From an uncultured bacterium (GTDB lineage Bacteria; Acidobacteriota; HRBIN11; JAKEFK01), in assembly GCA_963771165.1 (NCBI GenBank), contig CAVYSN010000001.1, positions 62,980-126,979 of the forward strand: a stretch of DNA of 64,000 nucleotides, read 5' to 3'. Under the pieces are notes generated by a model, which saw nothing but the letters and a program-made list of their open reading frames with translations, was not told where the DNA came from and did not search any database. Shown here in pieces: positions 1-33,568 of this stretch (positions within the stretch are counted from its first letter, which is position 1; each line of letters starts with the position of its first letter). The translations under genes and the position numbers were made by a program.

Positions 1-364
1 TGCATTTGAACCCGTTGACAGTCCGTTTATTCCCCGTATTTTGAACGTTGAGCTGCGCGTTCTGATTCATCTGTTTTAACATGGCTCCGGCCATATTCAT
101 CATATCGAGGCTCATGACCAGTACCTGTTTTTTGTCGGGATCCACTCTGTAGACTTTCTTTGTTCCAAGATCGAGGATCTGGTATTGCGCTACATTTTGA
201 TGTTCGATCCGTGCCTTGTTTCCTTTGATCTTCATGGTCTGGATTGTGTTCACACCGGGCTGGCCCATCATGGCACTGGTCTCCACTTTTTGAAGGATCG
301 TTGTATCAGCACTGCAAAGATTTGTTACGCCAACGATTGCCAGAATGACTAGAAAATGTCTCAT
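1..364 (-). CDS. Secreted hypothetical protein (DUF4412-like), 3' partial at window edge
   Basis: Minus-strand ORF starting ATG 364-362 with an AGGAGA SD upstream. Signal-peptide-like N-terminus MRHFLVILAIVGVTNLCSA. Its ATG overlaps the TGA stop of the upstream kinase gene (ATGA). Not in the ORF track because it runs off the window. Confidence 0.55.
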   Translation of the reverse strand, partial: MRHFLVILAIVGVTNLCSADTTILQKVETSAMMGQPGVNTIQTMKIKGNKARIEHQNVAQYQILDLGTKKVYRVDPDKKQVLVMSLDMMNMAGAMLKQMNQNAQLNVQNTGNKRTVNGFKC

Positions 365-3300
365 ATTGGTTCTCCTGAGTTTTTTTGTGATTCGTATCCT
401 TTTTTAAGATCTTCCATAACGTCCTTCAATGTAGAATAGCGTTGATTTCGGTCCTTTTCCAATGTCTTTAAGATAATTTTGTGCAGCCAATCGGGAATGT
501 CGGGATTTAGTTTGAGCAGATCAGGCGGCGGCTGGCTCAAATGTTTCAAAACGATTGTTCGCGGATCTTCTCCGGTGAAAGGCTCTTCTCCAGTGAACAT
601 GTAAAACATCAAAACACCGATAGCATATTGATCCGACCGCACGTCAAGGTCCTTTCCTTGAATTTGTTCAGGGGACATATACTTGGGCGATCCCATGACC
701 TGGCCGCTGGTTACATCCACATTGTCCATGGATCGAGCAATTCCAAAATCCAGAACGTGTGGGTTCATAGATTTGTCCATCAAAACGTTCTGCGGTTTCA
801 AATCGCGATGGATGATTCCCTGGGCATGAGCTGCCTGAACTCCCTGCATCATTTTAACAGTCACGGCCAGCAAGGTCTTAAAATCGGGTTTCGCTCTTCT
901 GATCCAGTCATCCAGACTATGTCCTTCGATGTATTCCATGGAGATGTAGCGATTGCCTTTGTATTTACCTGTGTCGAAGACTTTGACAACATAAGGATGC
1001 GCAATACTGCGCGTGACTTTGATTTCACGAAGGAAACGTTTTTGAATCACAGGGTCTGTGCTGATTTCCGCACGCAAAACTTTGAGCGCAACGATTTCAT
1101 CGAGATCACGATCTCGAGCTTTATAAACATGACCCATTCCACCAAGGCCGATTTCCTTGATGATTTCGTATCTTTGGTTGAGAATCATGCCGGCAACAAT
1201 GTCTGCTACTTCCAGCTCTTCCAAAATCTGATCCGCGCCTGCATAGCGACGTTTCGGATCTTTGTGTAAACACTTCTGCATGATTTTTAACAGGAATACA
1301 GGGACCGGAAGGGGATAAGTATCCGGAAAAGCTGGAACCTGTTTGAGATGCTGCAGTTCAACGTCCTGGCCGCTAAAAGGCGTTTTTGCGTACAGCATTT
1401 CATAAAGCACAATTCCAAGCGAATAAATGTCCGTGCGCGCATCCACCTTTTGGCCCAGAATCCGTTCAGGACTGGCGTATTGTTTGGACACCAGGGTGCT
1501 TCCTTTTTCCCATTTCGCATCGATTCCAAAATTCGCAATCTTAATATGATTGCCGGTCGCGCAGTAAATGTTTTCCGGACAAAGATTTTTATGAACCACT
1601 TTTTTCTTGTGAGCAAAGGATAATCCAAGGCAAAGCTGTGAAACCATCTCGCATACTTCCGATACTTCCAGTGGTCCGTGCGCGAGCCGCTGTCGCAATG
1701 TTGGTCCTTCCACGAATTCCATGCAGACGAAATAGTAATCTTCATCCTTTCCGCTGTCGTAGATCGTTAATATGTTGCTGTGGATCAGACCGGACACGAT
1801 GCGAGTTTGCTCCAGAATGTTGCGGGTGATGTTCTTGTCCTGCTCCGGAAAACGCCGGATCAGCACCGGGCGCGCCAGCACAGTGTCCTGCGCTTTGTAA
1901 AGCGTACCAAAGGGGTCTTTTCCCAGCTTTTCCAGCAGCTCGTAGCGGGATGCGAGAATCCTTTTGAGCCCCGTGGGTGTAAAATCCGGGCTTCCCTGGA
2001 CACCATCTAATAAATTCGAAGACTTGATGCGCTGAAGCCTTTTTAACGCATCACTGTAATCGAGATCCACGGAGACGATCTTTTCGTAAATTTCACTCGA
2101 TTTCGAATACTGTGCCCCTTTCTCATAAGCCAACGCCAGACCGTAATAGGTCTGAATGTTGTTTTTGGACAGAGGCTGGTCCCGGATGGCTTCTTTAAAT
2201 TTTTCCTGTGCCACCGAGATACATTTCCATTTGAGTGAAAAGCTGTCCAAGCATGAGACAGGCCTCCGGGTAGTCGTCATCTTCCGATTGGACCTGTTGG
2301 AGAATGGATATGGCCGGCTGGATACTCTTTCTATCGATCAGGAGTTTTGCTGCGCGGATGCTTTTATGGGAGCGGACCAGACATTCTATGGCTTGTTCTA
2401 CCATATCCGCCTGTTCAAAGTAATGTGCCGCCTGTTCGAAGTTTTTTGCTCTGTCAAATAACTCCGCAGCTTTTTTGTAATCCTGCTGCTTGAGAGAAAG
2501 TTCAGCGGCCTTAGGATAGTCTTCCAGCGCCTCATAATAATCCGTAGCGCGTCGATAGTCCTTGAGCCCTTTCAAATGCTTCTGCCGCTCTTGCTCTGCG
2601 TCCAATTTGCAAATAGAGTTCGCCCGCTTCATGAAACTTACCCTGTTGGAAACAGATGTCTGCCAGGAGTTCCTTATTTTCCAGCTCGTCACCCAACCGG
2701 GAAAGGAGCTGGTATGCGGATTCATACTCGTGGATTCGATAATAAAGTTCTGCGGCTTTTTCATACTGATTCGAGAGGGAATAACATTCCGCTGCCTTTG
2801 TATAGTTTTCGGTAAGCTCAAAAGCCTCAGCAGCCCGTTCGTATTTCTTAAAGCGAAGATATAGAGTTCCCGCCGCTTGACCGACTTTGATCATTCTTGT
2901 TCGGTGACTTTGAATGAACCCCTTCTCTTCCCGTTCGCTATAGAGTTGTTTGAAGCGCCGGAAGTATACATCTGCAGCGCGTTCGTATTTTTGCGCTTGA
3001 ACATACAGATAAGCGGCGCGATCCAGAAGCTCAGCTTTTTCGGCAAGAAAAGCGGCACGGGGAATGTCACCGGCCTTTTCGGCCATTTCGGAAGCCCGCA
3101 TGACGTCGCCATTCTTTTCAAACATCGCCGAGGCTGTCCGGTAATCCTTTCAATCTGCCGCTGTAAATTTCGGCGGCATCGGAAATTTTTCCGGCCTGGA
3201 CATAATATTTTGCAGCTTCTTTCCAGTCGCCGCTCTTTTCCAGCATGCGGGCTGCAGAGTGTATAGTGGCCGCCTTTGAGATACATCTGCATTGCGTTCT

Positions 3301-3391
3301 TTTCATCTCCGGCCAGATAGTAAAAATCGCCGGCTTTTGAGTAATCCTCTTGACGTTTCGCCTTCCTGGCTTCTCTTAAGTAATCGGACAT
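361..3391 (-). CDS. TPR-repeat / pseudokinase / Ser-Thr protein kinase multidomain protein, split over at least 5 reading frames (likely assembly indels)
   Basis: ORF pieces 2891..3391, 3118..3306, 2532..3125, 2195..2821 and 361..2280 are collinear on the minus strand. The N-terminal pieces carry TPR/Sel1-like repeats. The middle kinase-like domain lacks the catalytic Lys (VLIRRF), has HKN for HRD and NFG for DFG. The C-terminal domain is canonical (GLGGMG, ALK, HRDLKPQN, DFG, SPE). Confidence 0.75.
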
Positions 3392-3556
3392 CGGCTATTC
3401 AGGATTGTTGAGATACGGATTGCAAGGGCAGAACACACGCATTTACACATTTTATCACGTTGAGCAGGAGGGGGTTGTTCTTCAAGAAAAGATAGCGATG
3501 AGAGTAAAGAGCGAACGAATTCTTTGCTTCCTTCACGATCTTTTGTCCAAAAAGAG

Positions 3557-5000
3557 CTAGAACCCGTATTCTTTCCACCGTTTGGTGACAAGCGCTTTAA
3601 CTTCCGGACTCATGACAATTTCATCCGGCCACGGGCGAGTGAATCCTTCTTCTTTCCACTTTCGTGTTGCATCCACTCCCATGTGCGAGCCGTAACCCAT
3701 CAGGCGAGACGAGTGATCCAGAACATCGACAGGCCCCATCACGAATTCGATGTCACGTTCCGGATCAATGTGATTCAATGCTTTCCACGCGACTTCACTG
3801 ATATTCTGAACATCCACATCGTCATCTACGACAACAATGACTTTTGTAAACATCGCCTGGCCCAATCCCCAGATCCCGTGCATGATCTTTCGCGCATGTC
3901 CGGCGTAGCGTTTCTTGATGCTGACAAGCATCAGGTTGTGAAACATTCCTTCAAAAGGCATGTGCATGTCAACGATTTCCGGGAATTGTTTCCGGATGAC
4001 AGGCAGAAATAGTCGCTCCACGGCCTGTCCCATGTAATCGTCTTCCTGCGGCGGCGGTCCGACAATGATGGTTTGGTAAATCGGATTCTTTCGATGGGTA
4101 ATGCAAGTCAAATGAAATGCGGGATACAGATCTTCTAATGAGTAATAACCCGTGTGATCGCCGAAAGGTCCTTCGATTTTCAGTTCTTCCGCCGGGTCCA
4201 CATAACCTTCCAGAACAATTTCAGCATGGGCCGGCACTTCCAGATCCACCGTTTCGCAACGAACCATCTCGACTGATTTTTCCCGTAACAGATCCGGCGA
4301 AGAGCATTTCGTAGATGTTGTCCGGCAGCGGTGCGATGGCGCTAAACGTAAGGACCGGGTCGCAGCCGATTGCTATTGCCACTTCCATCCGCTTTTTCTC
4401 GGCAAGATATTGTTGATGATGCGCTGCGCCATGTTTGTGCAGCTGCCAGTGCATCAAAAGAGTGCGATCATCGATCACCTGCAAGTCGATAGCATCCGCA
4501 ATTGTGTTTGCCCGTTTCGCTGATCAACGGTAAATACGAGCGGTAGGGTAATGTATCGTCCGCCATCCCTGGGCCAGCATTTTAAAACAGGCAAAGATTT
4601 CAGCGAAGGGCTTCTCTTTTACAATGACTTCTTTGCATGGACCCGACTTCACGCTCTTAGGCGCCATTTGTGCGATTTCGGTGAGTCGTGGAATCAGCTT
4701 GAGCTTATCCATAAAATTGGCTGGTTTTTCGAGGAGCTCAAAATACTTTTCAAAAAATGTTTCGTACGAATCGAGCCCCAATGCTGCCAGCATTCGTTTT
4801 TTGCTTCCCAGTGCATTGATCAGAACGGGAATGTCGTAACCCCTGGGATTTTCAAATAGAAGCGCCGGACCATTCTGTTTGGAAATACGATCGGTGATTT
4901 CAGCGATTTCCAGTTCCACGTCGACCGGGGCTTGTATCCGCTTTAGCTCCCCCATCTGATCGAGCGTTTGTACGAATTCACGGAGATCTTTATATGCCAT
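3557..5000 (-). CDS. ubiD: UbiD-family decarboxylase (3-octaprenyl-4-hydroxybenzoate carboxy-lyase-like), split in 3 frames
   Basis: Pieces 4524..5000 (N-term MAYKDLREFVQTLDQMGELKRI), 4221..4484 and 3557..4267 (C-term) are collinear and match the UbiD family end to end. Confidence 0.75.
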
Positions 5001-5008
5001 GGATCATC

Positions 5009-6556
5009 TCACACGAGTAGTGGCAGAGCATTTGCCCCGCTGTTGTGTCTGAACGTGCTGGCGTTCAGGGCGTGCCTTGCCCACCGAGGGTGATGTTCTT
5101 TTGCAAATGCTCTGCAAGTTTGATGAAATTTTGCAGAGCATTTCCTCGGAGGAGCATGTTCATACAAAGACAAAATCACCAATTCAAAAGTCTTGTTTTC
5201 GGAATTACACAGGAATTGCTCTGCCACTACAAGCCTTCGAACTCTTACCCGTTGACGTTCTGGATTCTTCTCAACTTTCCGACTGCGTTTGTTGCCGCTC
5301 TCGCAATTTCCACTTCCTTGATCTCTTAAATAAGGCTCAAGATAGGTGATCGCAACCGGCTGATGCATATTACCAAGCAAATCAATTAACTGAATCTTAA
5401 ATTTTTTATCTGCACCTTTTAAGTAAGCTGCAACTCCGGGTACGGCGCGAGGTCCTAATTCTACCAGATAGCTTTCGGCCTGACTTTCGAATTCCGGATC
5501 TTTTAAATTCAGAACAACGGTATCGATGTACGCAGATTCTCCCAAAGCGTACAGGCTAAAGCTGAGCGCTGTCTTAACCGCCGGCTCTTTTCCCGTTGAA
5601 AGTGAAGCTGCAGTCTCTGAACGTGCTGAGTCAGATTCATACGTCCGATTCCTTCAATCGCCGAAATTTGCAAAGCCTTATCTTCGGAATCCAAATACTT
5701 TACCATCCAGGATTCGTATGCTGGATCCGCGATTCTGCTGATTGCGTGAAAAGCAGCACGTCTGTAATCGTCATCATCGGAATATTCAAACAGTTTTTGC
5801 AATTCCGGCAAGGCTTCTCGATAACGAAGCTGTCCCAGAACGCGCGCGGTGTCTGTTACAACATCTTCATTCGAATGCTTTAGCATAGGAACTAAGATAA
5901 GGTCCGGCGGCAGGATCTCCAATGTAGCCAAGCGATCGTACGGTGGTCCGTACCATTTTCGTATTGGGTGACCTCAAGTAGAATGCAAGTCTTGGCAGCG
6001 AGGATCTTGCGCGCAGCAGACCGAGTACGGCAGCCGCTTCGATTCGATTGTCTGATCACTTTCTGATCCAGCACGAAAAGTGATGGAATCCACCGCTTGC
6101 TGATCCACTCTCAACCATGGTTCCACAATCGTGACTTCCGGCGGATCAAAAAGCGCCGAAATCGATGCCATTAACTTTTTTAACTTTCCATGTTCGTGAC
6201 TTGGAATGTAGACCTCGGTTAACAACGACATCGCCTTTTCCTGGGCTTCGCCTTGCGTATTTCGCACGGCCCGGCTGAGATAAGCGACCTGTTGCGGATG
6301 ATGAATTTTACCGAGAGCTTCCACCACGGCCAGCTGAACTTTTGGATCTTTATCGAGCGTTGCTTCGTCTAAAGCTTCGAGTCGCCAGCTTTTCACCGCG
6401 ATCCCCAACTTCTTTTGCAGCTTCGACAGTGCACTTTCGGATCTGTGTTTTTCAGATTCTGAATCAGCTCATCTGTCGAGAGCTTCTCAGCCGCAAAAGA
6501 TGGGAGCGTAAACGCTAAAGACAATAGTACCAGTGTGATCTTATCTAACCTCATCT
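5009..6556 (-). CDS. HEAT/PBS-lyase-like repeat protein with signal peptide, split in several frames; the 3' end reads through repeat R1
   Basis: Pieces 5974..6408, 5509..5931 and 5009..5545 carry HEAT-like repeats (VAYLSRAV, ARVLGQL, LLGNMHQ). The N-terminus MRLDKITLVLLSLAFTLPSFAAEK starts at 6556 in another frame. The C-terminal ~80 codons are translation of the MITE-like element. Confidence 0.55.
5015..5233. repeat. MITE-like element R1 with terminal inverted repeats GAGTAGTGGCAGAGCATTT / AAATTGCTCTGCCACTACAAG and two internal GCAGAGCATTT boxes
   Basis: Box 1 at 5021 (direct), box 2 at 5107 (inverted, AAATGCTCTGC), box 3 at 5137 (direct), box 4 at 5214 (inverted). The same architecture recurs at 51419..51635 and 53919..54310. 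Confidence 0.7.
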
Positions 6557-6652: not shown

Positions 6653-8947
6653 CTATTGCACTCGTTGCGACTCTTCCCAGTCTCGCATGCGTACCGACTC
6701 TGTCGACCAAATGTCGCTAGGGTTCTCACAATCATAGTGGAGGTCGAGGCTACCGAAGACCTCTGTTTCGTCCACATCTCCTGAGCAGGTCGCCCGGTCT
6801 TCCGCAATCACGAACCCATTCACACCGACGGTACCATTAAAGCGGATCGATTCATGTGCCAGATACGCGCCTGCGAAGTTCTGTTGCGTTCCTGTGGGGG
6901 CTCCATTGCAATCCGTGCTATTGCAAGCAAGATCATCTGCGGTTCCGTGCAAGTTTAAGTCGCGTCCCGCTACGACCGCCCACCTATAGTCCGGATCACC
7001 GGCCGGTGGATTGATGTTGACCGTTCCTCCGGCACGAACATTGCCGTAACCGATTACTGTGATTCTCCAGGTTGCGTTCAAGTCAAACAACGGATCGTCG
7101 TCGATATTGATTTGAGCAGCAGGATTCGAAGTTCCTGTATCGTAATAAAAAATTCTGCTCACGTTGCCGCCGAAATCGACATCCGCGTAGGTGAAGATCA
7201 CAGCATTGTAGAGGGGCGAATAGATATCGTTGCCGGTTGCAGTGATATCACCATTGCTTATAATCGTGGACGTATCGAAGTCAGCGCTGTTGTCTCCTGT
7301 GTCAACCGTCTCATACAAGCCTGAGACGGCGTTCAATTCCACTGCTCGGACTCCTGGCAGTGGTTTTGTGAAAAGGCAGGAGCTATAAGTGCCGCACGAG
7401 GTTGAACGCGGTTGGGCTGTACCTGCTCCGCCAACCGATTTTAGTGCATTGCTTCGAGCGTCCACGCCATTGACATGGGGGAAGTCATTCACGTTCCAGT
7501 CATTTTGATCGGAGCCGCTGTTGTCTACTGAGGCAATATAAGGAGTATTCGGGATCGTCTCAAATTCTCCACCTGACGGACAGACTTCGGTGCTCAAGCT
7601 GTTATCCGGATTCCATCCGTAGAAAGTGTTGTTTTGACCGGTGACTCCCTCGGTCGCGGGGGTCCATGAAGAGCCTGAATCTAATGACCACGCATCGGCA
7701 TTGCACAACCCAGGTGTAAGCCCGCAAGTAACCACACGTCCACAATTATCTAACCGTATGGTATCGATATTTGCCTGGTCACTGTTTCCGATTAACCGCC
7801 AGATCCATCTTGAGTCCTTGGGAGGCTCGAGACCGAGCCCTGTATCGCCATAATTGCGATAGGCTTTGTATATGTAAATGGTGTTGTTATCGGCTTTCAC
7901 GATCGCGAAGTACTTTGAACTGCCGGGGTCGAATTCAGTGGGCGCCGGGCAATGTAGGAAATCGGGCAGTGTTCCATCAATCGAAGTATTGAATATTGCC
8001 GGATCGGGTCTGAAAATAGCATTGTAAGGGTTCACAATAGGGATGTAGATTTCCGGCTGTGTTCCCATGTCTCCAAGGATTGCTCCACCGTCGTATAGGA
8101 ATCCTTCTGTTCCCGTCACGGATCCGCAAGCGGATGGCCCCTCCCAGGTCATTGTCCCGTTTGCATGCGCGCTACCGCACTCGCCGCAAAGCTCAAGAGA
8201 TCCATGAACATTCATGTCGGAGTCGCTTCGGATTGCAACCGAGCCGACCGGGGAGAATCGCCCTACCAGATGACGTTCGGACTGGCCGCGGGTGGCAATT
8301 GTCGTATCCTCCGATGCGTCGTCGTCTAAATCCACAAACACAGGATAGATAGTCCGTACTTCGACTCTGACTCGCAGATCCGTATCGTTCGAATCGGCAC
8401 TGACCGGATCATAATTATCGAAAACTCGGGCATAAACGACTGTTCGAATATTGCCGTCATACCGATTGTCATTGTTTTCGTCCACGCCTAACCGGAATAC
8501 TTCCCAGTTTAATCCTGGAAAACTTGCTAACGTATCAATTCCGGATACGGTTTCCTCATTATCATTATCTATCTCTAAACGGTTCATCGTGGGATCGAAA
8601 TTATTCTTAAACCCTAAAATGTTCGCCATCCCGGTGGGCTTCACGGATCCATTCAGAACTCCATCCAGATCAGAAGGTCTGACAGTCACCACATAAGTCC
8701 TGATGGTTCGGTTCGCAAAATCAACCGCCCACTCTGCGTCGGCAAGAGCGTGAAAGGAATCCTGCTCGTTTTGTGAAATCAGGTGTTCCGTATTGCTTTG
8801 CATCACAAGCGAAAGCGAAATCAGCACCAGTGTCAGCATCACCATCATCGTGATGACCAGAGCAACACCTGGCTGCTTTGCTTTTCCGATTGTTTTTGCG
8901 AGGATTCTTGCGTTTCGCAGGATATATTTTTTCATAGATGCTCCCAT
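6653..8947 (-). CDS. Large PilX-N-domain pilus-associated protein (Asp/Asn/Gly/Thr-rich, adhesin-like)
   Basis: N-terminus GVALVITMMVMLTLVLISLSL fits the PilX_N pattern. 764 aa, low-complexity D/N/G/T-rich body. Last gene of the minor-pilin operon. Confidence 0.6.
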   Translation of the reverse strand: MGASMKKYILRNARILAKTIGKAKQPGVALVITMMVMLTLVLISLSLVMQSNTEHLISQNEQDSFHALADAEWAVDFANRTIRTYVVTVRPSDLDGVLNGSVKPTGMANILGFKNNFDPTMNRLEIDNDNEETVSGIDTLASFPGLNWEVFRLGVDENNDNRYDGNIRTVVYARVFDNYDPVSADSNDTDLRVRVEVRTIYPVFVDLDDDASEDTTIATRGQSERHLVGRFSPVGSVAIRSDSDMNVHGSLELCGECGSAHANGTMTWEGPSACGSVTGTEGFLYDGGAILGDMGTQPEIYIPIVNPYNAIFRPDPAIFNTSIDGTLPDFLHCPAPTEFDPGSSKYFAIVKADNNTIYIYKAYRNYGDTGLGLEPPKDSRWIWRLIGNSDQANIDTIRLDNCGRVVTCGLTPGLCNADAWSLDSGSSWTPATEGVTGQNNTFYGWNPDNSLSTEVCPSGGEFETIPNTPYIASVDNSGSDQNDWNVNDFPHVNGVDARSNALKSVGGAGTAQPRSTSCGTYSSCLFTKPLPGVRAVELNAVSGLYETVDTGDNSADFDTSTIISNGDITATGNDIYSPLYNAVIFTYADVDFGGNVSRIFYYDTGTSNPAAQINIDDDPLFDLNATWRITVIGYGNVRAGGTVNINPPAGDPDYRWAVVAGRDLNLHGTADDLACNSTDCNGAPTGTQQNFAGAYLAHESIRFNGTVGVNGFVIAEDRATCSGDVDETEVFGSLDLHYDCENPSDIWSTESVRMRDWEESQRVQ

Positions 8948-8958
8948 TGTTTGACTTT

Positions 8959-9876
8959 CTAGTAGCGATGCTTTCGAACCAGAACTTGTGTCGTAAAGTC
9001 CGCACTCTGATAATCCCCAACTTTATCGGCACGATCTGTGGCTGTAAGATCAATTTGAATAATGTCAACACTGTTGGTGAATACCCCGAGAGGGACAGTT
9101 AACGCAATCGGCCCGGCACTTGTTTTCCTGTAATAGCTCAATCGGAATTCACTGATATTTGTGGCAAACGTCTGCCACGTGGCGGTCAGTGTGGGATCTG
9201 AAACTGGAGGTGTTAGATACCTTTCAGCAGCCCGTTGGATTTCGCATTGAGTGTAGTCCGGCTTAGCAGCTGTAGCTTCGTCGCAGATGGAGTCTCCATT
9301 CGTATCGGGCGTAAGTCTGTACATGACATGAAGAGGGCTGGCAAAAATTTCCGTTTCTGCCACAGCAAAAGCCTGAGCTGCTCCGGGGGTGATGTTTAAA
9401 ACGTCTCCGGTCCGGCTTGAGCAGGTTGTTGATTGCCAGTTTCTTCCGCGTTCTACGATCAAAATAGGAATGCCGTCAAATGGGCAGGCAAATTTCCCTT
9501 CCCCGGTTTCGACTGTGATAGTCGAAGCCCCACTTGCAATCGGTCCGGTAGGCAGGGAGTTGTAGCTATCTACATCCCCACGGAAAACGATCTGATTATC
9601 ATCACCGCTGTAAACAGCAGGATTCCAGGTCAGATTGGCTCCAATCTGACCGCCATTCGGTACCCCAAACCCGATCAGCCTCATTTCGCGTTCCATCGCC
9701 TCCAGAGTGAGCCTTCCATTTTCCTGCAGATTTGCCCTCTTTTCGGAGTGCAGGTACATCCACCTTCCACTGTCAAAAAAGTAATAAATACCAATCGCCA
9801 TGAGCGAGAAAATGGCAACGCTCACGATCATTTCCAGCAAACTAACACCTTTTTCCAAGCGTTTCATAAAGGTCAC
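8959..9876 (-). CDS. pilW: Type IV pilus minor pilin, PilW-like
   Basis: Prepilin-type N-terminus KG/VSLLEMIVSVAIFSL. Operon position between the pilV-like and pilX-like genes. Confidence 0.6.
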   Translation of the reverse strand: MTFMKRLEKGVSLLEMIVSVAIFSLMAIGIYYFFDSGRWMYLHSEKRANLQENGRLTLEAMEREMRLIGFGVPNGGQIGANLTWNPAVYSGDDNQIVFRGDVDSYNSLPTGPIASGASTITVETGEGKFACPFDGIPILIVERGRNWQSTTCSSRTGDVLNITPGAAQAFAVAETEIFASPLHVMYRLTPDTNGDSICDEATAAKPDYTQCEIQRAAERYLTPPVSDPTLTATWQTFATNISEFRLSYYRKTSAGPIALTVPLGVFTNSVDIIQIDLTATDRADKVGDYQSADFTTQVLVRKHRY

Positions 9877-9877
9877 C

Positions 9878-10327
9878 TTACTGAGTGATCAGCGTGGGGA
9901 AAACGATCCTTTTTTGTTCCAGCGCCTCAGAGTCCGACTTCAATGTTCCGGCGGAATCGTAAATGTCATACCCTGCCACCACGATGACTGATTTCGCATT
10001 CGTAAGGGCCGTGTAGTCTTCAACGACCCAGTGCACAGAATACTTATCCGCAGATCCGCCCGGCATCGGCCACTTCGGGAATGATGGAGTGGGATGGGTA
10101 CCCGCAACTAAATCACTGTGAGAAACCGGAATGGACCTGAGATAATCCAACTGCATTTGACCAAGATGGTTTAATGTGGCGCTTCTGCCCGAATTTGTAA
10201 TCTGCTTATATCCACCGGGCAATAGAGCCATAATTCCAAGCGCGACAAGTGAAAGGATTACAATTGCAACAAGAATCTCAATCAATGAAAACCCTTCTTG
10301 AGTTTGTTCCGGATCCTTTAAGTGCAT
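9878..10327 (-). CDS. pilV: Type IV pilus minor pilin, PilV-like
   Basis: N-terminal prepilin motif EG/FSLIEILVAIVILSLVALG. Confidence 0.6.
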   Translation of the reverse strand: MHLKDPEQTQEGFSLIEILVAIVILSLVALGIMALLPGGYKQITNSGRSATLNHLGQMQLDYLRSIPVSHSDLVAGTHPTPSFPKWPMPGGSADKYSVHWVVEDYTALTNAKSVIVVAGYDIYDSAGTLKSDSEALEQKRIVFPTLITQ

Positions 10328-10334
10328 GATTCCT

Positions 10335-10853
10335 CTACTCCTTCACTTTCGTTACCATTCCATTGGTCTGGACAGTGATGCGATAAATGTAATCATCGGT
10401 TGATTTCACCCGAATTGTGCTTCCACCGGTGATGGTGGCGGCGCCTCGGGGATTAAAAGTCACTTCTGTGATTCCTCCGGTCAAAATCTTGAGTCCACTG
10501 GCCACCGATGTGTCCGCATTGGAATATTTTACAAACGTCCCGTCCTTGTCATCATCCATCTGGACTTCGTAGGTGTTGGATGGATCTTCATTGAAAACAA
10601 CCTTGTAATTGATTCGCTTCTTTACGGCTGCCATTCTTGCAAAGCGGATGTTCATTGTGATTTGTTCCACAGCGGTTTGAGAACGGTAATTCTGTATCGT
10701 TTTAAAGAACGCAGGCAGGAATATCGCCGCAACAATTGCAATGAGACCTACCACGATCAGGGCTTCCAGTAAGGTGTACCCGCGATCCAATCCATTATCT
10801 TTTTCGCCCATTGTATTGTGATCCTCAGCAAACACCATACCCGACAAAAACAC
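10335..10853 (-). CDS. Type IV pilin-like pseudopilin, FimT/GspH-like
   Basis: Prepilin motif RG/YTLLEALIVVGLIAIVAAI followed by a GspH/FimT-like beta domain. First gene of the operon. Confidence 0.55.
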   Translation of the reverse strand: MFLSGMVFAEDHNTMGEKDNGLDRGYTLLEALIVVGLIAIVAAIFLPAFFKTIQNYRSQTAVEQITMNIRFARMAAVKKRINYKVVFNEDPSNTYEVQMDDDKDGTFVKYSNADTSVASGLKILTGGITEVTFNPRGAATITGGSTIRVKSTDDYIYRITVQTNGMVTKVKE

Positions 10854-15355: not shown

Positions 15356-16029
15356 TCACCATTCGACTTCCAGAAAAGTTTTCAGCAAGTCAGGTGACGT
15401 ATTCGCCAGACGAGTCATGGATTGAAAACCGGGCCCCTTGAAATCCGGTGGCACGCTTTTACCTATTTTTTGAAGCAATCCTGCAAGGACAGCAGGAAAA
15501 TGGCTGGTGACGGATACGAAGCGATCATGCTGGTTCGCATCAACAACCACCGGACGCCCTCCAAGGTCTTTCGCGAAAATTTGCACAGTTTTCAAATCCC
15601 GATGCGATGAATGCCTGGAAGTACAAACAAAAAATGGAGCATTCTCAAATAAGTTCTCCCGCCATCCTTTTTCGCCGGCAAATTCATTTCCAGTCATCGG
15701 ATGACCGCCAATAAAACGCAGTTTTCTGCGGTTTGCGAGCCGGATCAGTTTCGCTTTTCCGCTACACACATCCATCAACAGCCGGCCAGGATCAACCCTG
15801 TCGAAGAAAATCTGTTGTCTGAGCGTAATGAAGACAGATGACAGTGAGGTCTGCGTCCGCGGCATCTTCCCATTGCTTGCTCGCATGGTCAAGCAAGGAG
15901 TGGAGTAATTGGAGCCGTTTTGAGGAAGTATCAATACCTGTAATCGAATATGTGCTTTTGATTTTTTCGAAGCGTTAAAACGATGGAACCTCCGATCTGG
16001 CCGAGCCCGACGATGGCGATTCGCTTCAT
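15356..16029 (-). CDS. tyrA: Prephenate dehydrogenase (TyrA), frameshifted
   Basis: N-terminus [15 protein letters not shown] begins at 16029 in one frame. The core ([22 protein letters not shown]) is in the 15356..16255 frame. Its ATG overlaps the aroF TGA (ATGA). Confidence 0.75.
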
Positions 16030-17059
16030 CGCGTTTTCCAAAGCCTGTCCCGTCCAAGGGCAGATGCGATCGCCTTGAGCTCCCGCATGAGATCCGCGAA
16101 CCCTTGAAAATCGAGGCTCTGAGGGCCATCGCTTTTGGCTTTTTCCGGTTGTCCATGCACTTCAACCATGATTCCATCGGCGCCGACCGCAAGCGCGGCT
16201 TTGGCAAGCGCCGGCACCAGACTTCTCCTTCCCGCCGCATGACTCGGATCCACAATGATCGGTAGATGCGAAAGCTCCTTGATCACCGGTACAGCGGAGA
16301 TATCCAGCGTGTTTCGCGTGTATGTTTCGAACGTCCGGATTCCTCGTTCGCACAGCATCACCTGAGAGTTTCCACCGGAAAGAATGTATTCACTCGCAAG
16401 CAAGAATTCTTCGATCGTAGAAGACAACCCGCGTTTGAGCAGAACCGGTTTCTGGGCTTCGCCTGCGGCCTTCAGCAAAGAAAAATTTTGCATGTTGCGC
16501 GCTCCGATCTGAACCACATCGGCATATTGCACAGACCGTATTCATTTCAGAAGCGGACATCACTTCTGTAACAACCGGTAATCCGGTTTTTTCACGCGCT
16601 TCAGCCAGGTACTTCAGTCCCTCTTCTCCCAATCCTTGAAAACTATAGGGGGAAGTCCGGGGCTTATAAGCGCCGCCTCGTAACATGTGGGCGCCCTGTT
16701 CTTTTACAAATTCGGCAACTTCCAGTAAATGATCGCGTGATTCCACAGAGCAGGGACCTGCAATGATTACGAATCCTCCATGGGTCCCTACCTCGGAACC
16801 GTTGATGCGAACAACGCTGTCGGCTTCGTGGAAGTCGCGTGAAGCCATTTTGAATGGCTTTGTAATGCGAATCACTTCTTCCACAGCCTTCAAGATCCAG
16901 AAATGCTTCTCTGGAAATATGCGACGTGTCTCCCAGCAGACCAATGACCGTACGTTCCTCACCACGAGACACGTGATAACGAATGTTCATCTGATCCAGA
17001 TGTTGGATCACATCACTAATCTGTTTTAGCGTCGCCGCATGACCCATCACGACAATCAT
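16026..17059 (-). CDS. aroF: 3-deoxy-7-phosphoheptulonate (DAHP) synthase with N-terminal ACT-like regulatory domain (Thermotoga type), split in 3 frames
   Basis: [44 protein letters not shown] (ACT domain), then [14 protein letters not shown] ... [23 protein letters not shown], then [10 protein letters not shown] ... DPSH. The pieces are collinear with Thermotoga maritima DAHP synthase. Confidence 0.8.
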
Positions 17060-17076
17060 AAAAACCTCCTAGCTCA

Positions 17077-17138
17077 TTAACGCAAAGACGCAATGACGCA
17101 ATGAAAAAAATCTTCGCGGCTTAGCGTCTTTGCGTTAA
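17077..17138. repeat. Intra-operon hairpin TTAACGCAAAGACGC ... GCGTCTTTGCGTTAA between aroH and aroF (GACGCA-heptad family)
   Basis: 15-bp inverted arms with a 32-nt spacer. Followed on the minus transcript by the AGGAGG RBS of aroF. Confidence 0.55.
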
Positions 17139-17142
17139 ATCT

Positions 17143-17499
17143 TCATAGGTCCGGCCGCAGGGAAGCCGCATTGCCCAAGTACTGATGGCGTACATCTTCC
17201 TGAGCCGCATTTGTTTCAAACAAAACTAAAACTCGTAAAACTCTTTCCAGCGCTCCTTCTACGGGAATCTCCTGGCCACACAAGAAAGGAACCAATTCCC
17301 ATCCAAGTTTGGTCCGGACGGCTGCTGGAAATGCCGCATTCAAATCGGGCGTCACCGTAAAAAAAACCGTCGATACGTTCTCTCGCTGGATTTGATTCGA
17401 ATCGATCAATGCAAGCATCAACTCTTCGGCAGCTGCAACGATTGCCTGCTTCTCATTGATGCTGACCTGAATGGCTCCACGAACACCTCGTATCATCAC
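17143..17499 (-). CDS. aroH: Chorismate mutase, AroH class (monofunctional, B. subtilis type)
   Basis: MMIRGVRGAI ... TPDL ... LRPDL, about 118 aa, matches AroH end to end. Confidence 0.8.
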   Translation of the reverse strand: MMIRGVRGAIQVSINEKQAIVAAAEELMLALIDSNQIQRENVSTVFFTVTPDLNAAFPAAVRTKLGWELVPFLCGQEIPVEGALERVLRVLVLFETNAAQEDVRHQYLGNAASLRPDL

Positions 17500-18218
17500 A
17501 ATCTCCTGAAGCTTTCATAGAACTTTTGCAACTTCTCAACGTGACCTGAACGGATGATTTCAACGATTCTCGAACCAACGATAAATGCATCGATTGCGCC
17601 TTGATATGGTTCCGTGTCTACCGCACTCTTGATTCCGAAGCCGAGGGCCAAGGGCACGCGTGCGTGTTTCTTGACTTGAAATGCTTTATTTCTGATCTGC
17701 TCATGATTTTGAATCGTGGCGCCCGTTGTTCCCTTCAGGGAGAGCAGATACACAAATCCTTCGGCCGCCGCTGCGATTCGTTTTAAACGTTCTTCACCGG
17801 TTGAAAGGGAGATAAATGAAATCCAGAATATTCCACATTCTTTTGTCATTTCCCGCCACTCCGCCGATTCTTCAAAGGGCACATCCGGTACGATCAGATA
17901 CTTCGCGCCGCATTCCGCGGAAGCTTTCATGAATTCTCTCTGACCATACGCGAGAATCGGATTTGCGTACGACATCAAGGCCAGCGGTACGCGGGTGGAC
18001 TTGCTTTGCAAGAGCTCGAATAGAGAATCGATTGAAAAAGCGTGCTCCAGCACCTCAGAGGCGGCACTCGCCAGGACGGGTCCGTCAGCAACCGGATCTG
18101 TAAACGGGATTCCGATCTCAATCGTGTCGGCGTATTGCAGCGTAAGATCCAGGATTTCTGAGAAACGGGATGCATCAGGGAACTGCGCCAGCAAATAAGG
18201 ATAAAAGAGTTTTTTCAC
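17496..18218 (-). CDS. trpA: Tryptophan synthase alpha chain
   Basis: TrpA family similarity across 240 aa. Overlaps trpB by 4 nt. Confidence 0.85.
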   Translation of the reverse strand: MKKLFYPYLLAQFPDASRFSEILDLTLQYADTIEIGIPFTDPVADGPVLASAASEVLEHAFSIDSLFELLQSKSTRVPLALMSYANPILAYGQREFMKASAECGAKYLIVPDVPFEESAEWREMTKECGIFWISFISLSTGEERLKRIAAAAEGFVYLLSLKGTTGATIQNHEQIRNKAFQVKKHARVPLALGFGIKSAVDTEPYQGAIDAFIVGSRIVEIIRSGHVEKLQKFYESFRRL

Positions 18219-19381
18219 TCCAGCTCCTCCAGCACAATGTTGAGATCCTTGTCGCCGCGTCCCGATAAATTCACCACAATCGCGCCGCTCTGATTTGTCA
18301 GTGTTTTCAGATAAGCGATTGCATGACAGGATTCCAGGGCAGGAAGAATTCCTTCTGTTTTTGCCAGTGTTTGAAATGCCTCAAGGGCTTGCTGATCGGA
18401 AACAGTTACGTATTGCACACGTCCCGTGTCTTTCAAGTGGCTGTGCTCCGGACCAACCGCCGCATAATCCAGTCCGGGCGCTATGGATTCCGTGTCCTCA
18501 ATCTGTCCCTGTGATCTTTGCAAGACATAGGTGTAAGCGCCGTGCAGAATTCCCGGTTTGCCATGTTTGAGTGTTGCAGAATGGTGTCCGGGTGCGTCGC
18601 TGTTTCCCCCCGCTTCCACTCCTATCAACCGAATGCCCGTGTTGAGGAGTGGATAGAATAGTCCGATCGCGTTGGATCCGCCTCCTACGCAAGCGATTGC
18701 AACAGAAGCTTTTTGATTCTCAACCTGAATCTGCGCAACAACTTCTTCACCGATCACTTTTTGGAAATTGCGAACAATCATCGGATACGGATGAGGTCCT
18801 ACGACGGATCCGATCAGGTAATGAGTATTGTCGACGTTTGCAATCCAGTCGCGGAGCGCTTCGTTGATTGCATCTTTCAACGTTTGTGAACCCTGGACCA
18901 CAGGACGGACTTCCGCGCCAAAATGTTTCATCCTGCGAACATTCAATTGTTGTCGCTGCACATCTTTTGCGCCCATATACACAACGCAATCGAGTCCAAG
19001 CCGTGCACAAGCTGCGGCAGTAGCGACTCCGTGCTGCCCGGCTCCCGTTTCAGCAACGATCCTGCTCTTCCCAAGTTTTGCTGCGAATAGAGCTTGACCG
19101 AGACAGTTGTTGATTTTGTGTGCGCCTGTATGGCACAGATCTTCGCGCTTTAAATAAACCGGTCCGATTTGTAATTGCTCGGTTAGACGTTTTGCAAAAT
19201 AAAGTGGCGTCGGTCTTCCTGCAAATTCTTTCAGCTCGCGGGATAGGCTGCTTCGGAATTCGGAAGATCCGGCTATCCGTTCATAGTCGCTTTCGAGCCG
19301 CAACAACGCTTCCATCAATGTTTCCGGGACAAATCGCCCACCATACTTACCGAAATATCCCCGGCTATCCGGTACTGTCAT
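18215..19381 (-). CDS. trpB: Tryptophan synthase beta chain
   Basis: PLP-enzyme motifs (HTGAHKINN, GGGSNAIG). Confidence 0.9.
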   Translation of the reverse strand: MTVPDSRGYFGKYGGRFVPETLMEALLRLESDYERIAGSSEFRSSLSRELKEFAGRPTPLYFAKRLTEQLQIGPVYLKREDLCHTGAHKINNCLGQALFAAKLGKSRIVAETGAGQHGVATAAACARLGLDCVVYMGAKDVQRQQLNVRRMKHFGAEVRPVVQGSQTLKDAINEALRDWIANVDNTHYLIGSVVGPHPYPMIVRNFQKVIGEEVVAQIQVENQKASVAIACVGGGSNAIGLFYPLLNTGIRLIGVEAGGNSDAPGHHSATLKHGKPGILHGAYTYVLQRSQGQIEDTESIAPGLDYAAVGPEHSHLKDTGRVQYVTVSDQQALEAFQTLAKTEGILPALESCHAIAYLKTLTNQSGAIVVNLSGRGDKDLNIVLEELE

Positions 19382-20685
19382 TTTCCGTTCACCAGCCGGA
19401 TGAATTCGCGAATCTTATTTCCATCTTTGATGCCCGGCTCGCTTTCGACGCCGCGTGCTACATCGACCCATTCCGGATGACAAAGCGAAATCGCCTGTGA
19501 GATATTTCCTGCATGTAATCCGCCGGCAAGCGCAAACAGGGATTTCCGGCTCAGTAGTTCCCATGCCTGAGGGAGATCGGATTCCGGGATTTTGATGTCG
19601 AGCAAACGACCTTGAGAAGCTTCGGTTTGCTCTGCTATTTCACGCAAAGACGTTAGAGTTGTTGCATGCCAGGTTGGAATCGAAGCGCTGCACGAATCAT
19701 AGATCTGGGCGATGTTCAGGGCGCATTCGGCGATGGTTGATTCGATCTCCTGCCGCGATTGATTGCGAAATACGCCGATGCATGGAACAGCAATCCGTTC
19801 ACGGAACGACTTCAGGCTCTCAACGGAGATTCGTCTCGGACTCTCTGCGAAAATGAACCCCAGAGCAGAAGCTCCCAACTCAGCGGAAGTTCTCGCATCA
19901 CGCTCAGTTGTGATGCCACAGATTTTTACCTTCGTGTGCGATGCAGATCGAACAAAGCGGGACAGTTCTTCGGCTGGATTTTCGGAACGCAGAAAATGTT
20001 CGCCAATCAAAGCGCCGTTGTATCCAAGCGAAAAAACTTTTCGCAAAACCTCAACACTGTCGATGCCGCTTTCTGCAATGCAGTAAGCATCGGGAAGAAG
20101 ATCTCTCATTCGAACAAATCTTGATAGATCGACCTGCAAGGTCTCCAGATCGCGTGAATTTACGCCAATGTACCGGACCGGGAAATCGAGTTTCTGCAAA
20201 TCCTTCTCGTCCGTGACTTCAACAATCGCATTCATTCCGATCTTTTCACACAATTGTTGCATTTCTCGAATCTGTTCCGGTTTTAGAAATCTTGTAATCA
20301 GCAGAATAAAATCTGCACCGGCTTCCTTTGCTTCAAGGATCTGGAATTCATCCAAAATAAAATCCTTTTGCAAAAGCGGCGTCGAAACTGCTCGGCGCAC
20401 CTGGCGCAAATCGTCCAGCGATCCTTGAAAGAAGTGTTCTTCGGTCAACACCGAAATGGCTGCGGCTCCTGCAGCTTCATAGGATCGAGCCAGCCGGTCG
20501 AGATCCAGGCCCGGTCGAATCGCGCCGACCGAAAGCGATGCGCGTTTGATCTCTGCAAAAATTCGGAATTGATTTCTCTCCCAATAGAGACGCCGGTCAT
20601 CCAGAGGAACATCCGGCGTATGCTGCGATTTACGTTGTTCCACATCGGTCTTTTTACGTTTCAGAAGCTCCGCGATTGTTTTCAT
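19378..20685 (-). CDS. trpCF: Bifunctional indole-3-glycerol-phosphate synthase / phosphoribosylanthranilate isomerase (TrpC-TrpF fusion)
   Basis: IGPS half (MKTIAELL ..., FILDEFQILEAKEAGADFILL, IGVNSRDLETL) plus PRAI half (KICGITTERDA ... IQIYD). The real ATG at 20685 overlaps the trpD TGA. The track start 20922 is a read-through extension. Confidence 0.85.
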   Translation of the reverse strand: MKTIAELLKRKKTDVEQRKSQHTPDVPLDDRRLYWERNQFRIFAEIKRASLSVGAIRPGLDLDRLARSYEAAGAAAISVLTEEHFFQGSLDDLRQVRRAVSTPLLQKDFILDEFQILEAKEAGADFILLITRFLKPEQIREMQQLCEKIGMNAIVEVTDEKDLQKLDFPVRYIGVNSRDLETLQVDLSRFVRMRDLLPDAYCIAESGIDSVEVLRKVFSLGYNGALIGEHFLRSENPAEELSRFVRSASHTKVKICGITTERDARTSAELGASALGFIFAESPRRISVESLKSFRERIAVPCIGVFRNQSRQEIESTIAECALNIAQIYDSCSASIPTWHATTLTSLREIAEQTEASQGRLLDIKIPESDLPQAWELLSRKSLFALAGGLHAGNISQAISLCHPEWVDVARGVESEPGIKDGNKIREFIRLVNGK

Positions 20686-21690
20686 GCGGGGAACATCTCC
20701 TGGAGTCGTTTTACCACGCGAAGGGCCGCGCCTGAATCCAACGATTCGATCACAGCCTGCTTTGCACTTTCCTCCGTTGCATCCGGATGGTATGCAAGAT
20801 AACCCAGCAAAGCGTTGAGTAATACAGTATCCCGTCGGGCACCTTTTTCTCCGTTCAAAATGGCCTGCGTAATCCGTGCGTTCTCCGCCGGCGAGCCTCC
20901 TTTCAGGTCTTCGCTGCAGCATTCCAGGAACCCGAAATTCGCTGCATTTTTGACGTCAGGTGGCCCAAACGTGCTGTGTAGAATGAATTCAGCAGAAGGG
21001 GATGCTTCATCGAAGCCATCCACTGAATGAACCAGGAAGGCGCGCTTTTGAGAATCGAGTTTTCGAATTGCTGACTCCATCAAAGGAAGAGCACGCCTTT
21101 CATAGACTCCAATGACTTGAACCTCAGGAATGGCTGGATTGGTCAACGGCCCGAGTAAATTGAAGATGGTTGGAGTGTCAAGCTGTTTTCGGACCATAAC
21201 AACAGATTTTGTTGCCGGATGATAGTCGGGAGCAAAGAGGAAAACGAAACCGGTTTTTTCCAGCGCCCGCGGACAGCTGTTCCGGGCTCATGCTGTGCGA
21301 GATCCCCAGCTCATGCAAGAGATCCGCGCTTCCGCTTGCCGATGAAGCGGCACGATTTCCGTGTTTGACGATCGGAATTCCGCACCCGGCCAGAACAAAT
21401 GCTGCGCTCGTTGAAATGTTAAAACTATTCTTTTTATCTCCGCCGGTTCCACAAGTGTCCATGATCCGAATCCCATTCAAATGAACTCGAATGCATTTTT
21501 CCCTCATCGCTGCAGCAAAACCAGCAATTTCTTCGGCGGTTTCCCCTTTCCTGTGAAGCTCTGTTAGAAACGCTCCGGTTTGTGCAGAATCCCATGCTTG
21601 TTCCATCATTGCGAAAACAGCTTCTTTACTTTCGCGGGCGTTTAAATCCTCACCGAGCTTTACCTTTTCGATGAACTCTTGATATTTCAT
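20682..21690 (-). CDS. trpD: Anthranilate phosphoribosyltransferase, split in 2 frames
   Basis: N-terminus MKYQEFIEKV ... DTCGTGGDKKNSFNISTSAAF (21178..21690) and C-terminus (20682..21197) are collinear. Confidence 0.8.
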
Positions 21691-21712
21691 TTTCGCAGTT
21701 GACCTATTAACG

Positions 21713-21818
21713 CCCGCGAGATCCTCCCAAAAGTTAGTTGGAGCGCGGACTTCCAGTCCGCAAAAACTGTTAAGCTCCACGAGTCTATTGCGGGCCAAAG
21801 ATGTCTGCGCTCCCACTA
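21713..21818. repeat. ~105-nt structured intergenic repeat, copy B (trpG-trpD spacer)
   Basis: Aligns with copy A at 12631..12740. Fills nearly the whole 125-nt trpG-trpD spacer. A C to T change in the 3' arm keeps the long-range stem as a G-U pair when read as the plus-strand RNA. Confidence 0.7.
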
Positions 21819-22388
21819 AATCTGATCCAGGAAGTTTTTCATCAAGCGCATTCCTTCCTTTGTCATATAAGATTCCGGATGAAATTGCACACCTTCGGTC
21901 ATTGTTCCTCGCACTCGAAGTCCCATGATCTCTCCCGCTGGCGTGTGCGCAGAAATATGCAGCTCAGCTGGAAGCTTTTCTTCAGCCACAATCAATGAAT
22001 GGTAGCGCGCCGCCGCAAACGGGTTTGTCAGTCCTGAAAAGACTCCATTCCCATCATGGATGATCATGGATGTTTTCCCGTGCATTAGAACAGGAGCGCG
22101 TTGTACTCTCCCGCCAAAAACATGTGCGATGCATTGATGACCGAGGCAAACCCCAAGCACAGGAACCCTGGAGTGAAAATGCAAGATCATTTCATTGGAG
22201 CAGCCGGCATCAATCGGTGTTCCCGGTCCAGGTGAAATCACGACATGTGAGGGGCGGTACTCTTCCGCCTCCTGCACTGTAACCTGATCGTTATACTTAA
22301 CCTTCACATCGGCTCCCAGTATCAGAAAAGCCTGATACAGGTTGTATGTAAATGAATCGTAGTTATCGATCAGCAGGACACGGTTCAT
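21816..22388 (-). CDS. trpG: Anthranilate synthase component II (glutamine amidotransferase)
   Basis: Class-I GATase motifs (GVCLGHQ, H/E triad region). Confidence 0.85.
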   Translation of the reverse strand: MNRVLLIDNYDSFTYNLYQAFLILGADVKVKYNDQVTVQEAEEYRPSHVVISPGPGTPIDAGCSNEMILHFHSRVPVLGVCLGHQCIAHVFGGRVQRAPVLMHGKTSMIIHDGNGVFSGLTNPFAAARYHSLIVAEEKLPAELHISAHTPAGEIMGLRVRGTMTEGVQFHPESYMTKEGMRLMKNFLDQI

Positions 22389-32985: not shown

Positions 32986-33568
32986 TCGTCAAATTGACCT
33001 TCAAAGGCTTGTCACCTACCGTTACTTTTTGCATCGTTTGTCCCTCTTCCGCATACACTCGTAGCTGAAAATCTCCATTCGGGATGTTCCCCAAAGTGAA
33101 ATACCCTTCCTGGTCCGCAATCGTATAGTGCGGCGAAGAGGTAACGATGATCGTGGCGGACATTTGCGGATGTACATTGCAAAATACTTTTACGACACCT
33201 GGATGCTCAAAGGTTTGAGTCTTATTCCCTCCGCCTTTATAAAGTCCGAGATCGAACCGGTTCGGCGCCGACACAGAAAAGATGTTGTGGAATATGGAAT
33301 CGAGATTCGGAAACTGAACGGACGCTCCTACCGGAACAGCGAGAACACGCGGAGCAAATTGCTTATCCTTTGTCGCCATGGTGAATTTCTTTTTCAATGC
33401 TTCCTGGGGTATGTTCGATTGCGAAACGGCTTCCAGATACAGGATCACCGAGGAGTGGTCTGTCTTCTTTTTCTCACCTTTGAGGAGCACTTGCACCATA
33501 CCGAATACTTCGTGGGCATTCGCCTCCAGCCCGAATAGAAGAAGCATGAGTGCCGCGAAAAACCGCAT
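32909..33568 (-). CDS. Secreted cupredoxin (amicyanin-like type-1 Cu site) fused to a CarbopepD_reg-like beta-sandwich
   Basis: Signal peptide. FAPRVLAVPVGASVQFPNLDSIFHNIF ... FCNVHPQM (His, Cys-x2-His-x2-Met ligands). C-terminal GYFTLGNIPNGDFQLRVY. Overlaps the start of the downstream receptor kinase. Confidence 0.55.
   Translation of the reverse strand: MRFFAALMLLLFGLEANAHEVFGMVQVLLKGEKKKTDHSSVILYLEAVSQSNIPQEALKKKFTMATKDKQFAPRVLAVPVGASVQFPNLDSIFHNIFSVSAPNRFDLGLYKGGGNKTQTFEHPGVVKVFCNVHPQMSATIIVTSSPHYTIADQEGYFTLGNIPNGDFQLRVYAEEGQTMQKVTVGDKPLKVNLTIDGRNFKKAKHKNKFGKDYDENERY

Follow-up and report, generated by a model that had tools for sequence, protein, structure and literature searches.

Bacterial pseudokinases are almost unstudied experimentally. 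Seven families have been catalogued, including ActPs1-3, GLW, CP1, DYD and DLHK, and for none of them has a fusion been described, be it with an active kinase or with an N-terminal repeat domain; the word 'tandem' occurs 0 times in the two texts that describe them (10.1101/2025.01.12.632604; PMC12599244). Here we describe a gene from an uncultured bacterium of the Acidobacteriota (HRBIN11; JAKEFK01) whose predicted product joins an N-terminal helical-repeat arm, a pseudokinase domain (K1) and an active kinase domain (K2) in one chain. The gene lies on the minus strand of a 64,000-nucleotide stretch of DNA, referred to below as the window (contig CAVYSN010000001.1 of assembly GCA_963771165.1, forward-strand positions 62,980 to 126,979). 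A preliminary description of the sequence had placed a repeat-pseudokinase-kinase fusion at positions 361-3391, and all of its elements are present there. The family to which the gene belongs is uncatalogued but widespread, with members in many uncultured bacteria.

The closest described systems in sequence are PknB of M. tuberculosis, Stk1 of S. aureus and StkP of S. pneumoniae (K2 against StkP, E 4e-56; K1 against Stk1, E 1e-39). They are also the closest in fold for both K1 and K2, with template modelling (TM) scores of 0.8-0.9 normalised to the target, and the positions aligned with R10, L33 and D76 of PknB are conserved in both domains. Unlike these kinases, the window protein has no transmembrane helix and no PASTA domain, and its sensor-like domain is N-terminal and cytoplasmic. 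It also has two kinase-fold domains per chain, the first of which is predicted to be catalytically dead. An assignment to the PASTA kinases by the NCBIfam model NF033483 (PknB_PASTA_kin) was rejected, as there is no PASTA match and no transmembrane segment. The 527 bits that this model gives on the orthologue P0001, against a cut-off of 450, are the sum of two kinase domains and cover model positions 2-274 of 563. The cut-off is passed all the same, and automatic annotation could misname the family as PASTA kinases.

The order of the two domains is that of the eukaryotic Janus kinases (JAKs; JH2-JH1) and of GCN2, in which a pseudokinase directly precedes an active kinase on the same polypeptide, a layout that invites the hypothesis that the dead domain is regulatory. 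However, JH1 of the JAKs is a tyrosine kinase in a protein with FERM and SH2 domains and GCN2 has RWD and HisRS-like domains, whereas no FERM or SH2 match was found in the window protein and the catalytic loop of K2, HRDLKPQN, is of the Ser/Thr type. No homology to JAK or GCN2 was found beyond the kinase fold; the likeness is one of domain order alone. The plant tandem kinases (WTK1/Yr15, Pm24/WTK3, Pm36, Pm57 and Lr41), in the extracts of the literature on them, have two kinase folds in tandem, one of which is often a pseudokinase, and they are mostly not membrane receptors, which is another likeness. In the same extracts, most of them are kinase-pseudokinase proteins, the reverse of the order seen here; they have an immune function, come from unrelated lineages of the kinase superfamily and lack a helical-repeat arm. 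The preliminary description had spoken of a JAK-like or plant tandem-kinase logic; what survives of this is the JAK domain order, in a protein of the PknB type.

Among the catalogued bacterial pseudokinases, DYD shares with K1 the change of the beta3 Lys to Arg and the loss of the alphaC Glu, and ActPs2 shares the beta3 Arg (PMC12599244). DYD differs in its DYD motif, its association with membranes and its occurrence in Actinobacteria and Firmicutes, whereas the K1 clade has NFG, GFG, HFG or DFG at this place and no transmembrane segment. CP1 and DLHK are cytoplasmic, like K1. The taxa of the known families are Actinobacteria, Firmicutes, Proteobacteria and Cyanobacteria; the relatives of K1, in contrast, come from uncultured, Acidobacteriota-like lineages. 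PknG, Myxo1, Strep1/2 and GN-NS1 resemble the window protein in linking a Hanks kinase to a helical repeat, but their TPR is C-terminal to the kinase, whereas the arm described here is N-terminal and consists of 13-residue AdAR/SNAP-like units. A literature search of open-access papers and bioRxiv only found no paper on a bacterial tandem pseudokinase-kinase, which is a weak negative.

K1 is recognised by the Pfam Pkinase profile (window positions 1174-1950, 140 bits, E 1.3e-40, profile positions 1-259 of 263), and its AlphaFold2 (AF2) model has a kinase fold with PknB-like secondary structure and a predicted local distance difference test (pLDDT) score of 75-95. Its catalytic residues are gone. 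The beta3 Lys is replaced by Arg (R511, in VLIRR, codon 1857-1855), the HRD motif reads HKN (1593-1585), with N601 in the Asp position, and the DFG motif reads NFG (1533-1525), with N619 in the Asp position. These three losses had been noted before and are confirmed here; to them are added the replacement of the alphaC Glu by Gln (Q527) and a degenerate Gly-loop, GKDPFG. The same motif losses were obtained each time that K1 was realigned, to K2, to a hidden Markov model (HMM) of canonical domains and to M. tuberculosis PknB, and no realignment, including that to the Pfam profile, restored a catalytic residue. We also considered whether a WNK-like Lys in beta2 compensates for the loss in K1 and rejected this, the position being K/R-variable and equally present in K2. 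We predict that K1 is a pseudokinase, incapable of phosphotransfer.

The second domain presents the opposite picture. K2 gives a stronger match to the same profile (364-1173, 183.6 bits, E 6.1e-54), and the earlier statement that it is fully canonical holds for every motif: GLGGMG, VALK, the alphaC Glu, HRDLKPQN, DFG and SPE are all kept (K769, codon 1083-1081; E788; HRD at residues 860-862, 810-802; DFG at residues 880-882, 750-742). K2 of the window protein and of all homologues retains the pattern GGG / VAK / E / HRD / KN / DFG / PE, and T893 (711-709), in the activation loop, and G895 do not vary among 35 tandem homologues. K2 is thus predicted to be a catalytically competent Hanks-type Ser/Thr kinase.

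The distances to the orthologues bear on what K1 is kept for. Synonymous substitutions per site (dS) are saturated for nearly all pairs; dN/dS was dropped and the comparisons use the non-synonymous substitutions (dN) alone. At short distance the dN of K1 to its orthologues is 0.07-0.09 versus 0.06-0.07 for K2, and at long distance K1 evolves about twice as fast as K2. Judged by these values, K1 is under strong purifying selection, a conserved domain and not a decaying one, and it presumably still has a structural or regulatory part to play. The substitutions are themselves unevenly conserved. The Arg at R511 and the Gln at Q527 are invariant in the clade to which the window protein belongs and the Asn of the catalytic loop is mostly kept. 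Across the orthologues the HRD-Asp position is occupied by N, S, C, F, H, G or Y and the DFG-Asp position by N, G, H or D; therefore, no replacement catalytic residues are conserved.

The invariant beta3 Arg and alphaC Gln, together with the mostly kept Asn, would fit an alternative in which K1 is not inert, but binds a nucleotide or catalyses a non-canonical reaction, and so would be an atypical enzyme or a switch under the control of a ligand. Bacterial pseudokinases that have a beta3 Arg and no alphaC Glu are predicted to bind ATP (PMC12599244). ATP binding in the beta3-Arg 'DYD' pseudokinases or in ULK4 would be a precedent, as would chemistry of the SelO type. However, there is no conserved alternative catalytic base or metal ligand, and the Gly-loop is degenerate. 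We consider an active K1 unlikely and return to K1 as a non-catalytic domain.

K1 and K2 are joined by a linker of approximately 6-12 residues, and the junction, ILEELEVADIV(A/P)GM, is nearly invariant. The invariant columns are I726, L730, E731, D734, I735, V736, G738 and M739 (alignment A1, 1013-aa numbering). When modelled alone by AF2, the K1-K2 part has a pLDDT of 86 and a predicted TM score (pTM) of 0.70, whereas the full-length protein has a pTM of 0.45. This difference suggests, at the level of a structural model, a defined arrangement of the tandem with a mobile repeat arm.

The repeat arm had been labelled TPR, and this label must largely be given up. In residues 1-365 the identity autocorrelation rises to 0.222 at lag 13 from a background of about 0.05, and a 13-residue motif (..D-Y/F-x-x-A-A-x-x-Y/F..) recurs about 28 times. 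In the AF2 model (pLDDT of about 90) each unit forms a helix of about 10 residues followed by a turn of 3 residues, and in the alignment of the homologues an Ala is invariant at every 13th position. A canonical 34-residue TPR domain is ruled out for residues 1-365 by the 13-residue period. Only the region of residues ~373-456 is TPR-like, where the 13-residue repeats are followed by two to three longer hairpins (AF2 helices 373-386, 390-401, 411-423, 427-440 and 447-456). The Pfam matches on the arm, to SNAP, the aromatic-di-alanine repeat (AdAR), Clathrin and IFT-type TPR, are sub-threshold, and the TPR-family matches lie below the curated cut-offs, marginal ones excepted. No transmembrane segment was found anywhere in the protein (the maximal 19-residue hydropathy is 1.09), and the protein is therefore considered to be cytoplasmic. 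The arm may serve for protein binding or as a sensor.

The family is easily found once the gene has been stitched together. A homology search with the stitched protein returned intact homologues of 1001-1008 aa, with 53-88% identity and end-to-end alignment. The order UbiD - kinase gene - DUF4412 - AlaX-like is kept down to 56-59% identity; it is not kept in the distant tandem or single-kinase relatives that were examined. A profile search, which covered 1.84 billion representatives, recovered the arm-K1-K2 layout from 30 or more clusters (50% identity); every one of these has a canonical K2 and nearly every one a degraded K1. The preliminary description had called such a fusion rarely documented in bacteria. 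This is correct for the literature, as neither the kinase atlas nor the 2025 pseudokinase review mentions it, but it does not hold for sequence space, given the number of clusters. A scan of a genome collection with the family alignment was swamped by the generic HRDLKPQN pattern and gave as full-length relatives only L010 (61% identity) and L011 (Polarisedimenticolia, 36%). All of the relatives are bacterial and belong to uncultured, Acidobacteriota-like lineages.

The degree of erosion of K1 varies across the family, from near-canonical (VAK or VAR/E/HRD or HRN/DFG in P0046, P0047, P0121 and P0123) to strongly eroded; two distant members, P0046 and P0047, keep VAK/E/HRD/DFG in K1. The arm has several other partner combinations among the 120 listed homologues. 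The commonest form there is the arm with one kinase (750-860 aa); the others are a longer arm with one kinase (912-927 aa), the arm with K1-K2 (~1000 aa) and the arm with two kinases, the active one ahead of the degraded one (1070-1130 aa). On one contig (L090, 1385-6247), two paralogous genes for a repeat arm and a single kinase (750 and 748 aa) are adjacent; this pair could be a two-gene counterpart of the fused K1-K2.

In a neighbour-joining tree, the K1 domains form one clade and the K2 domains another, with congruent internal topology; the tree is crude and has no support values, and this detracts from what we read from it. The separate clades with their matching topology point to a single, old origin of the K1-K2 tandem, in which catalysis by K1 would have been lost later, within the clade.

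Another tandem-kinase protein is encoded in the window. At 54356-58894 (plus strand) there is a protein of 1512 aa with two N-terminal Hanks domains followed by ~900 aa of TPR-like sequence. Both of its kinases keep all catalytic motifs (HRDISPDN/DFG and HRDLKPQN/DFG), and the same kinase-kinase-repeat layout is present in Bryobacteraceae/Terriglobia loci (L012-L014).

The kinase gene is not continuous in the sequence as deposited. Its C-terminal 1.86 kb is a single open frame (open reading frame, ORF, 2280..361, 639 aa), of which the first ~22 residues are out-of-frame sequence, and its N-terminal 1.2 kb is spread over all three minus-strand frames. A split across at least five frames had been reported; the gene is indeed broken, but what is seen are five segments over the three frames of one strand, separated by four frameshifts, each a +1 insertion. 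All four are in the repeat region, no other frame-changing indel was found in comparison with the intact orthologues L001 and L005, and none lies within 361-2217. Deletion of the four bases gives 3027 nt, or 1008 codons without an internal stop, and a protein that is co-linear with the orthologues P0001-P0005 (1005-1008 aa).

The neighbouring genes have the same problem. The next two genes upstream, UbiD and a HEAT-repeat gene, have four +1 insertions and six +1 insertions plus one deletion, respectively, and so the kinase, UbiD and HEAT genes together (2218-6429) have 15 single-base indels, 14 of which are +1 insertions. Outside the kinase gene these sites are 4611, 4517, 4486 and 4291, and 6429, 6384, 6080, 6058, 5895, 5581 and 5320. 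The genes for DAHP synthase, trpD and trpE (15356-23619) are likewise each broken into pieces that align with successive parts of a single Pfam model. In the shifted part of the kinase gene the dN between the window and intact orthologues is 0.09-0.10, compared with 0.118 between two intact orthologues. We read the frame breaks as errors because insertions make up 14 of the 15 indels, the splits extend to housekeeping genes, nonsense codons are absent and constraint shows no sign of relaxation. On these comparative grounds the four insertions are most likely consensus or assembly errors and not gene decay, and the concern about a pseudogene that was raised earlier is probably unfounded. In long-read metagenome bins, frameshift noise can make a gene look like a pseudogene and conceal a multi-domain architecture.

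Several observations argue the other way. The indels are patchy and mostly outside homopolymers, which is not the textbook error profile, and real frameshifts may be present in this strain. The exact repaired 1008-aa protein was not found in the public protein collection. The public record is the 617-aa fragment P0265 only, starting at GTG 2214 (364-2214, minus strand; NCBI and ENA), and therefore the whole repeat arm was missed by public annotation. Exact look-ups of the 639-aa ORF, of both repaired 1008-aa variants and of P0265 matched no contig, and no intact copy from the same strain was obtained. Two Logan short-read assemblies contain a neighbour protein (482 aa) in intact form.

The four frameshifts that the sequence carries as given, and the absence of an identical intact copy from the public protein collection, are what one would expect of a genuine pseudogene, in which the insertions are real and the full-length protein is not made. 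However, natural bacterial gene decay is deletion-biased, and the indels in the three consecutive genes are nearly all insertions. It would also have to be explained why trpE, trpD and DAHP synthase are split, why no nonsense codon is present after repair and why dN is not raised on the lineage of the window. In addition, a long-read-style contig, L007 (3078-5977; ENA contig_14742), shows similarly split neighbours: HEAT and UbiD are each split into two called genes there and the kinase gene is intact. These splits are like assembly noise, in an independent record. We regard a pseudogene as improbable.

A related proposal is that only the C-terminal pseudokinase-kinase part is expressed, as a product of 617-639 aa (2280/2214 to 361) that works without the repeat arm. 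An intact 639-aa ORF does exist and the public gene call is the 617-aa P0265. However, this proposal needs the frameshifts to be real, all of the orthologues are full length and conserve the repeat arm no less than the kinase domains, and the leading residues of the 639-aa ORF (~22) are out of frame; a truncated product seems highly improbable. Weighing these points, we favour, with some reserve, a gene that is intact in the organism and a product that is a single soluble, cytoplasmic signalling protein of ~1008 aa, made up of a solenoid arm, the K1 pseudokinase and the K2 kinase.

How the parts of such a protein would work together is suggested by the resemblance to PknB. PknB-family kinases are allosterically activated through a back-to-back dimer of their N-lobes. 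The positions aligned with R10, L33 and D76 of PknB are invariant in both domains (R481, L504 and D544 in K1; R739, L762 and D805 in K2), and the PknB mutants L33D and D76A are deposited in the PDB. In the model that we propose, K1 would be a built-in, non-catalytic allosteric partner of K2, acting via the N-lobe 'back-to-back' surface; a binding partner would be coupled to the K1-K2 pair through the repeat arm; and K2 would autophosphorylate its activation loop and then phosphorylate its substrates. This three-step scheme is inferred and may as easily be wrong as right. The scheme takes R10, L33 and D76 to form the back-to-back surface of PknB. Against it counts that genes for a substrate, a phosphatase or an FHA partner are missing from the vicinity of the kinase gene.

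Should the scheme apply, we would tentatively regard these proteins as the first recognised prokaryotic family with an internally paired Hanks kinase, that is, an intramolecular PknB-style pair in which one copy has turned into a dedicated allosteric pseudokinase, and as the bacterial equivalent of JAK JH2-JH1 or GCN2. The family would be widespread in uncultured Acidobacteriota-like bacteria and form a series from active-active to dead-active. The question of how an inactive kinase domain governs an active one has so far mostly been studied in JAKs, GCN2 and the plant immune tandem kinases, and a conserved bacterial family would provide a simple system for it. The relatives with a catalytically intact first domain allow a stepwise comparison of catalytic loss; if the series is true, the evolution of a pseudokinase regulator could be reconstructed step by step.

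We give very little credence to K1 being an integrated decoy or docking domain for another kinase, an effector or a phage protein, with K2 reporting its modification: the tandem layout is like that of the plant tandem kinase proteins in the extracts mentioned above and the PADLOC kinase models (PD-T4-6, MAD6) match strongly, but these matches are generic to the kinase domain with a score summed over two domains, the neighbourhood (UbiD, DUF4412, AlaX-like and HEAT) is stable and not like a defence island, and K1 evolves slowly, unlike typical arms-race decoys. An assignment to a defence system via PADLOC was likewise rejected, the matches being those of a generic kinase domain.

The coordinates of the gene and its parts are collected in Table 1.

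Table 1. Features of the kinase gene and of the gene that follows it, in window coordinates.
Feature	Position	Strand	Basis or remark
Whole gene	361..3391	minus	1008-aa protein after deletion of four inserted bases; ATG 3391-3389, stop TGA 363-361
N-terminal alpha-solenoid, residues ~1-365	2294..3391	minus	Autocorrelation, AF2 helices, invariant Ala spacing
Frameshift 1, +1 inserted base (±2 nt)	3256	minus	DNA alignment to intact orthologues L001 and L005
Frameshift 2, +1 inserted base (AAA vs AA)	3150	minus	DNA alignment to L001 and L005
Frameshift 3, +1 inserted base; repaired residue Q or K, depending on the base removed	2565	minus	DNA alignment to L001 and L005
Frameshift 4, +1 inserted base (TAT-C-TCG)	2218	minus	DNA alignment to L001 and L005
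TPR-like hairpins with longer helices, residues ~373-456	2020..2272	minus	AF2 helices; TPR_14/TPR_19 matches below cut-off
Linker between repeat domain and K1, residues ~457-478, predicted disordered	1954..2019	minus	pLDDT <50 at residues 464-473
K1, predicted PknB-like pseudokinase, residues 479-730	1198..1953	minus	Pfam Pkinase match, motif alignments
K1-K2 junction, short, inside ILEELEVADIV(A/P)GM	1180..1197	minus	Invariant alignment columns
K2, canonical Hanks/PknB-type Ser/Thr kinase, residues 737-998	394..1179	minus	Pfam Pkinase match, motif alignments
Downstream DUF4412-like gene, 5' part; leaves the window	1..364	minus	ATG 364-362; orthologous neighbours carry PF14371

As the preliminary description had noted, the stop codon of the kinase gene overlaps the ATG of the downstream ORF as ATGA. 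This overlap is not shared by the orthologues, in which gaps of 2-75 nt are found. The downstream product had been described as DUF4412-like and secreted, and this is partly borne out: its 121 visible residues have 68.6% identity to orthologues whose full-length products carry PF14371 (DUF4412), and the N-terminus is signal-peptide-like (MRHFLVILAIVGVTNLCSA), but the 121-aa fragment alone has no Pfam match. A scan of positions 1-3800 for promoters and terminators gave nothing above the shuffled expectation.

Further upstream, beyond the HEAT-UbiD-kinase block, there is an intact cluster of type IV pilin-like/pseudopilin genes (6653-10853, minus strand; PilX_N, N_methyl and GspH-like) that is syntenic with L001 and L005. 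The window also encodes a receptor-type Ser/Thr kinase (30898-32985, minus strand), in which dCache_3 and HAMP are N-terminal to a canonical Pkinase domain. An upstream ORF (32909-33568) overlaps the gene for this kinase, which suggests either another frameshift or a separate CarboxypepD_reg-like gene.

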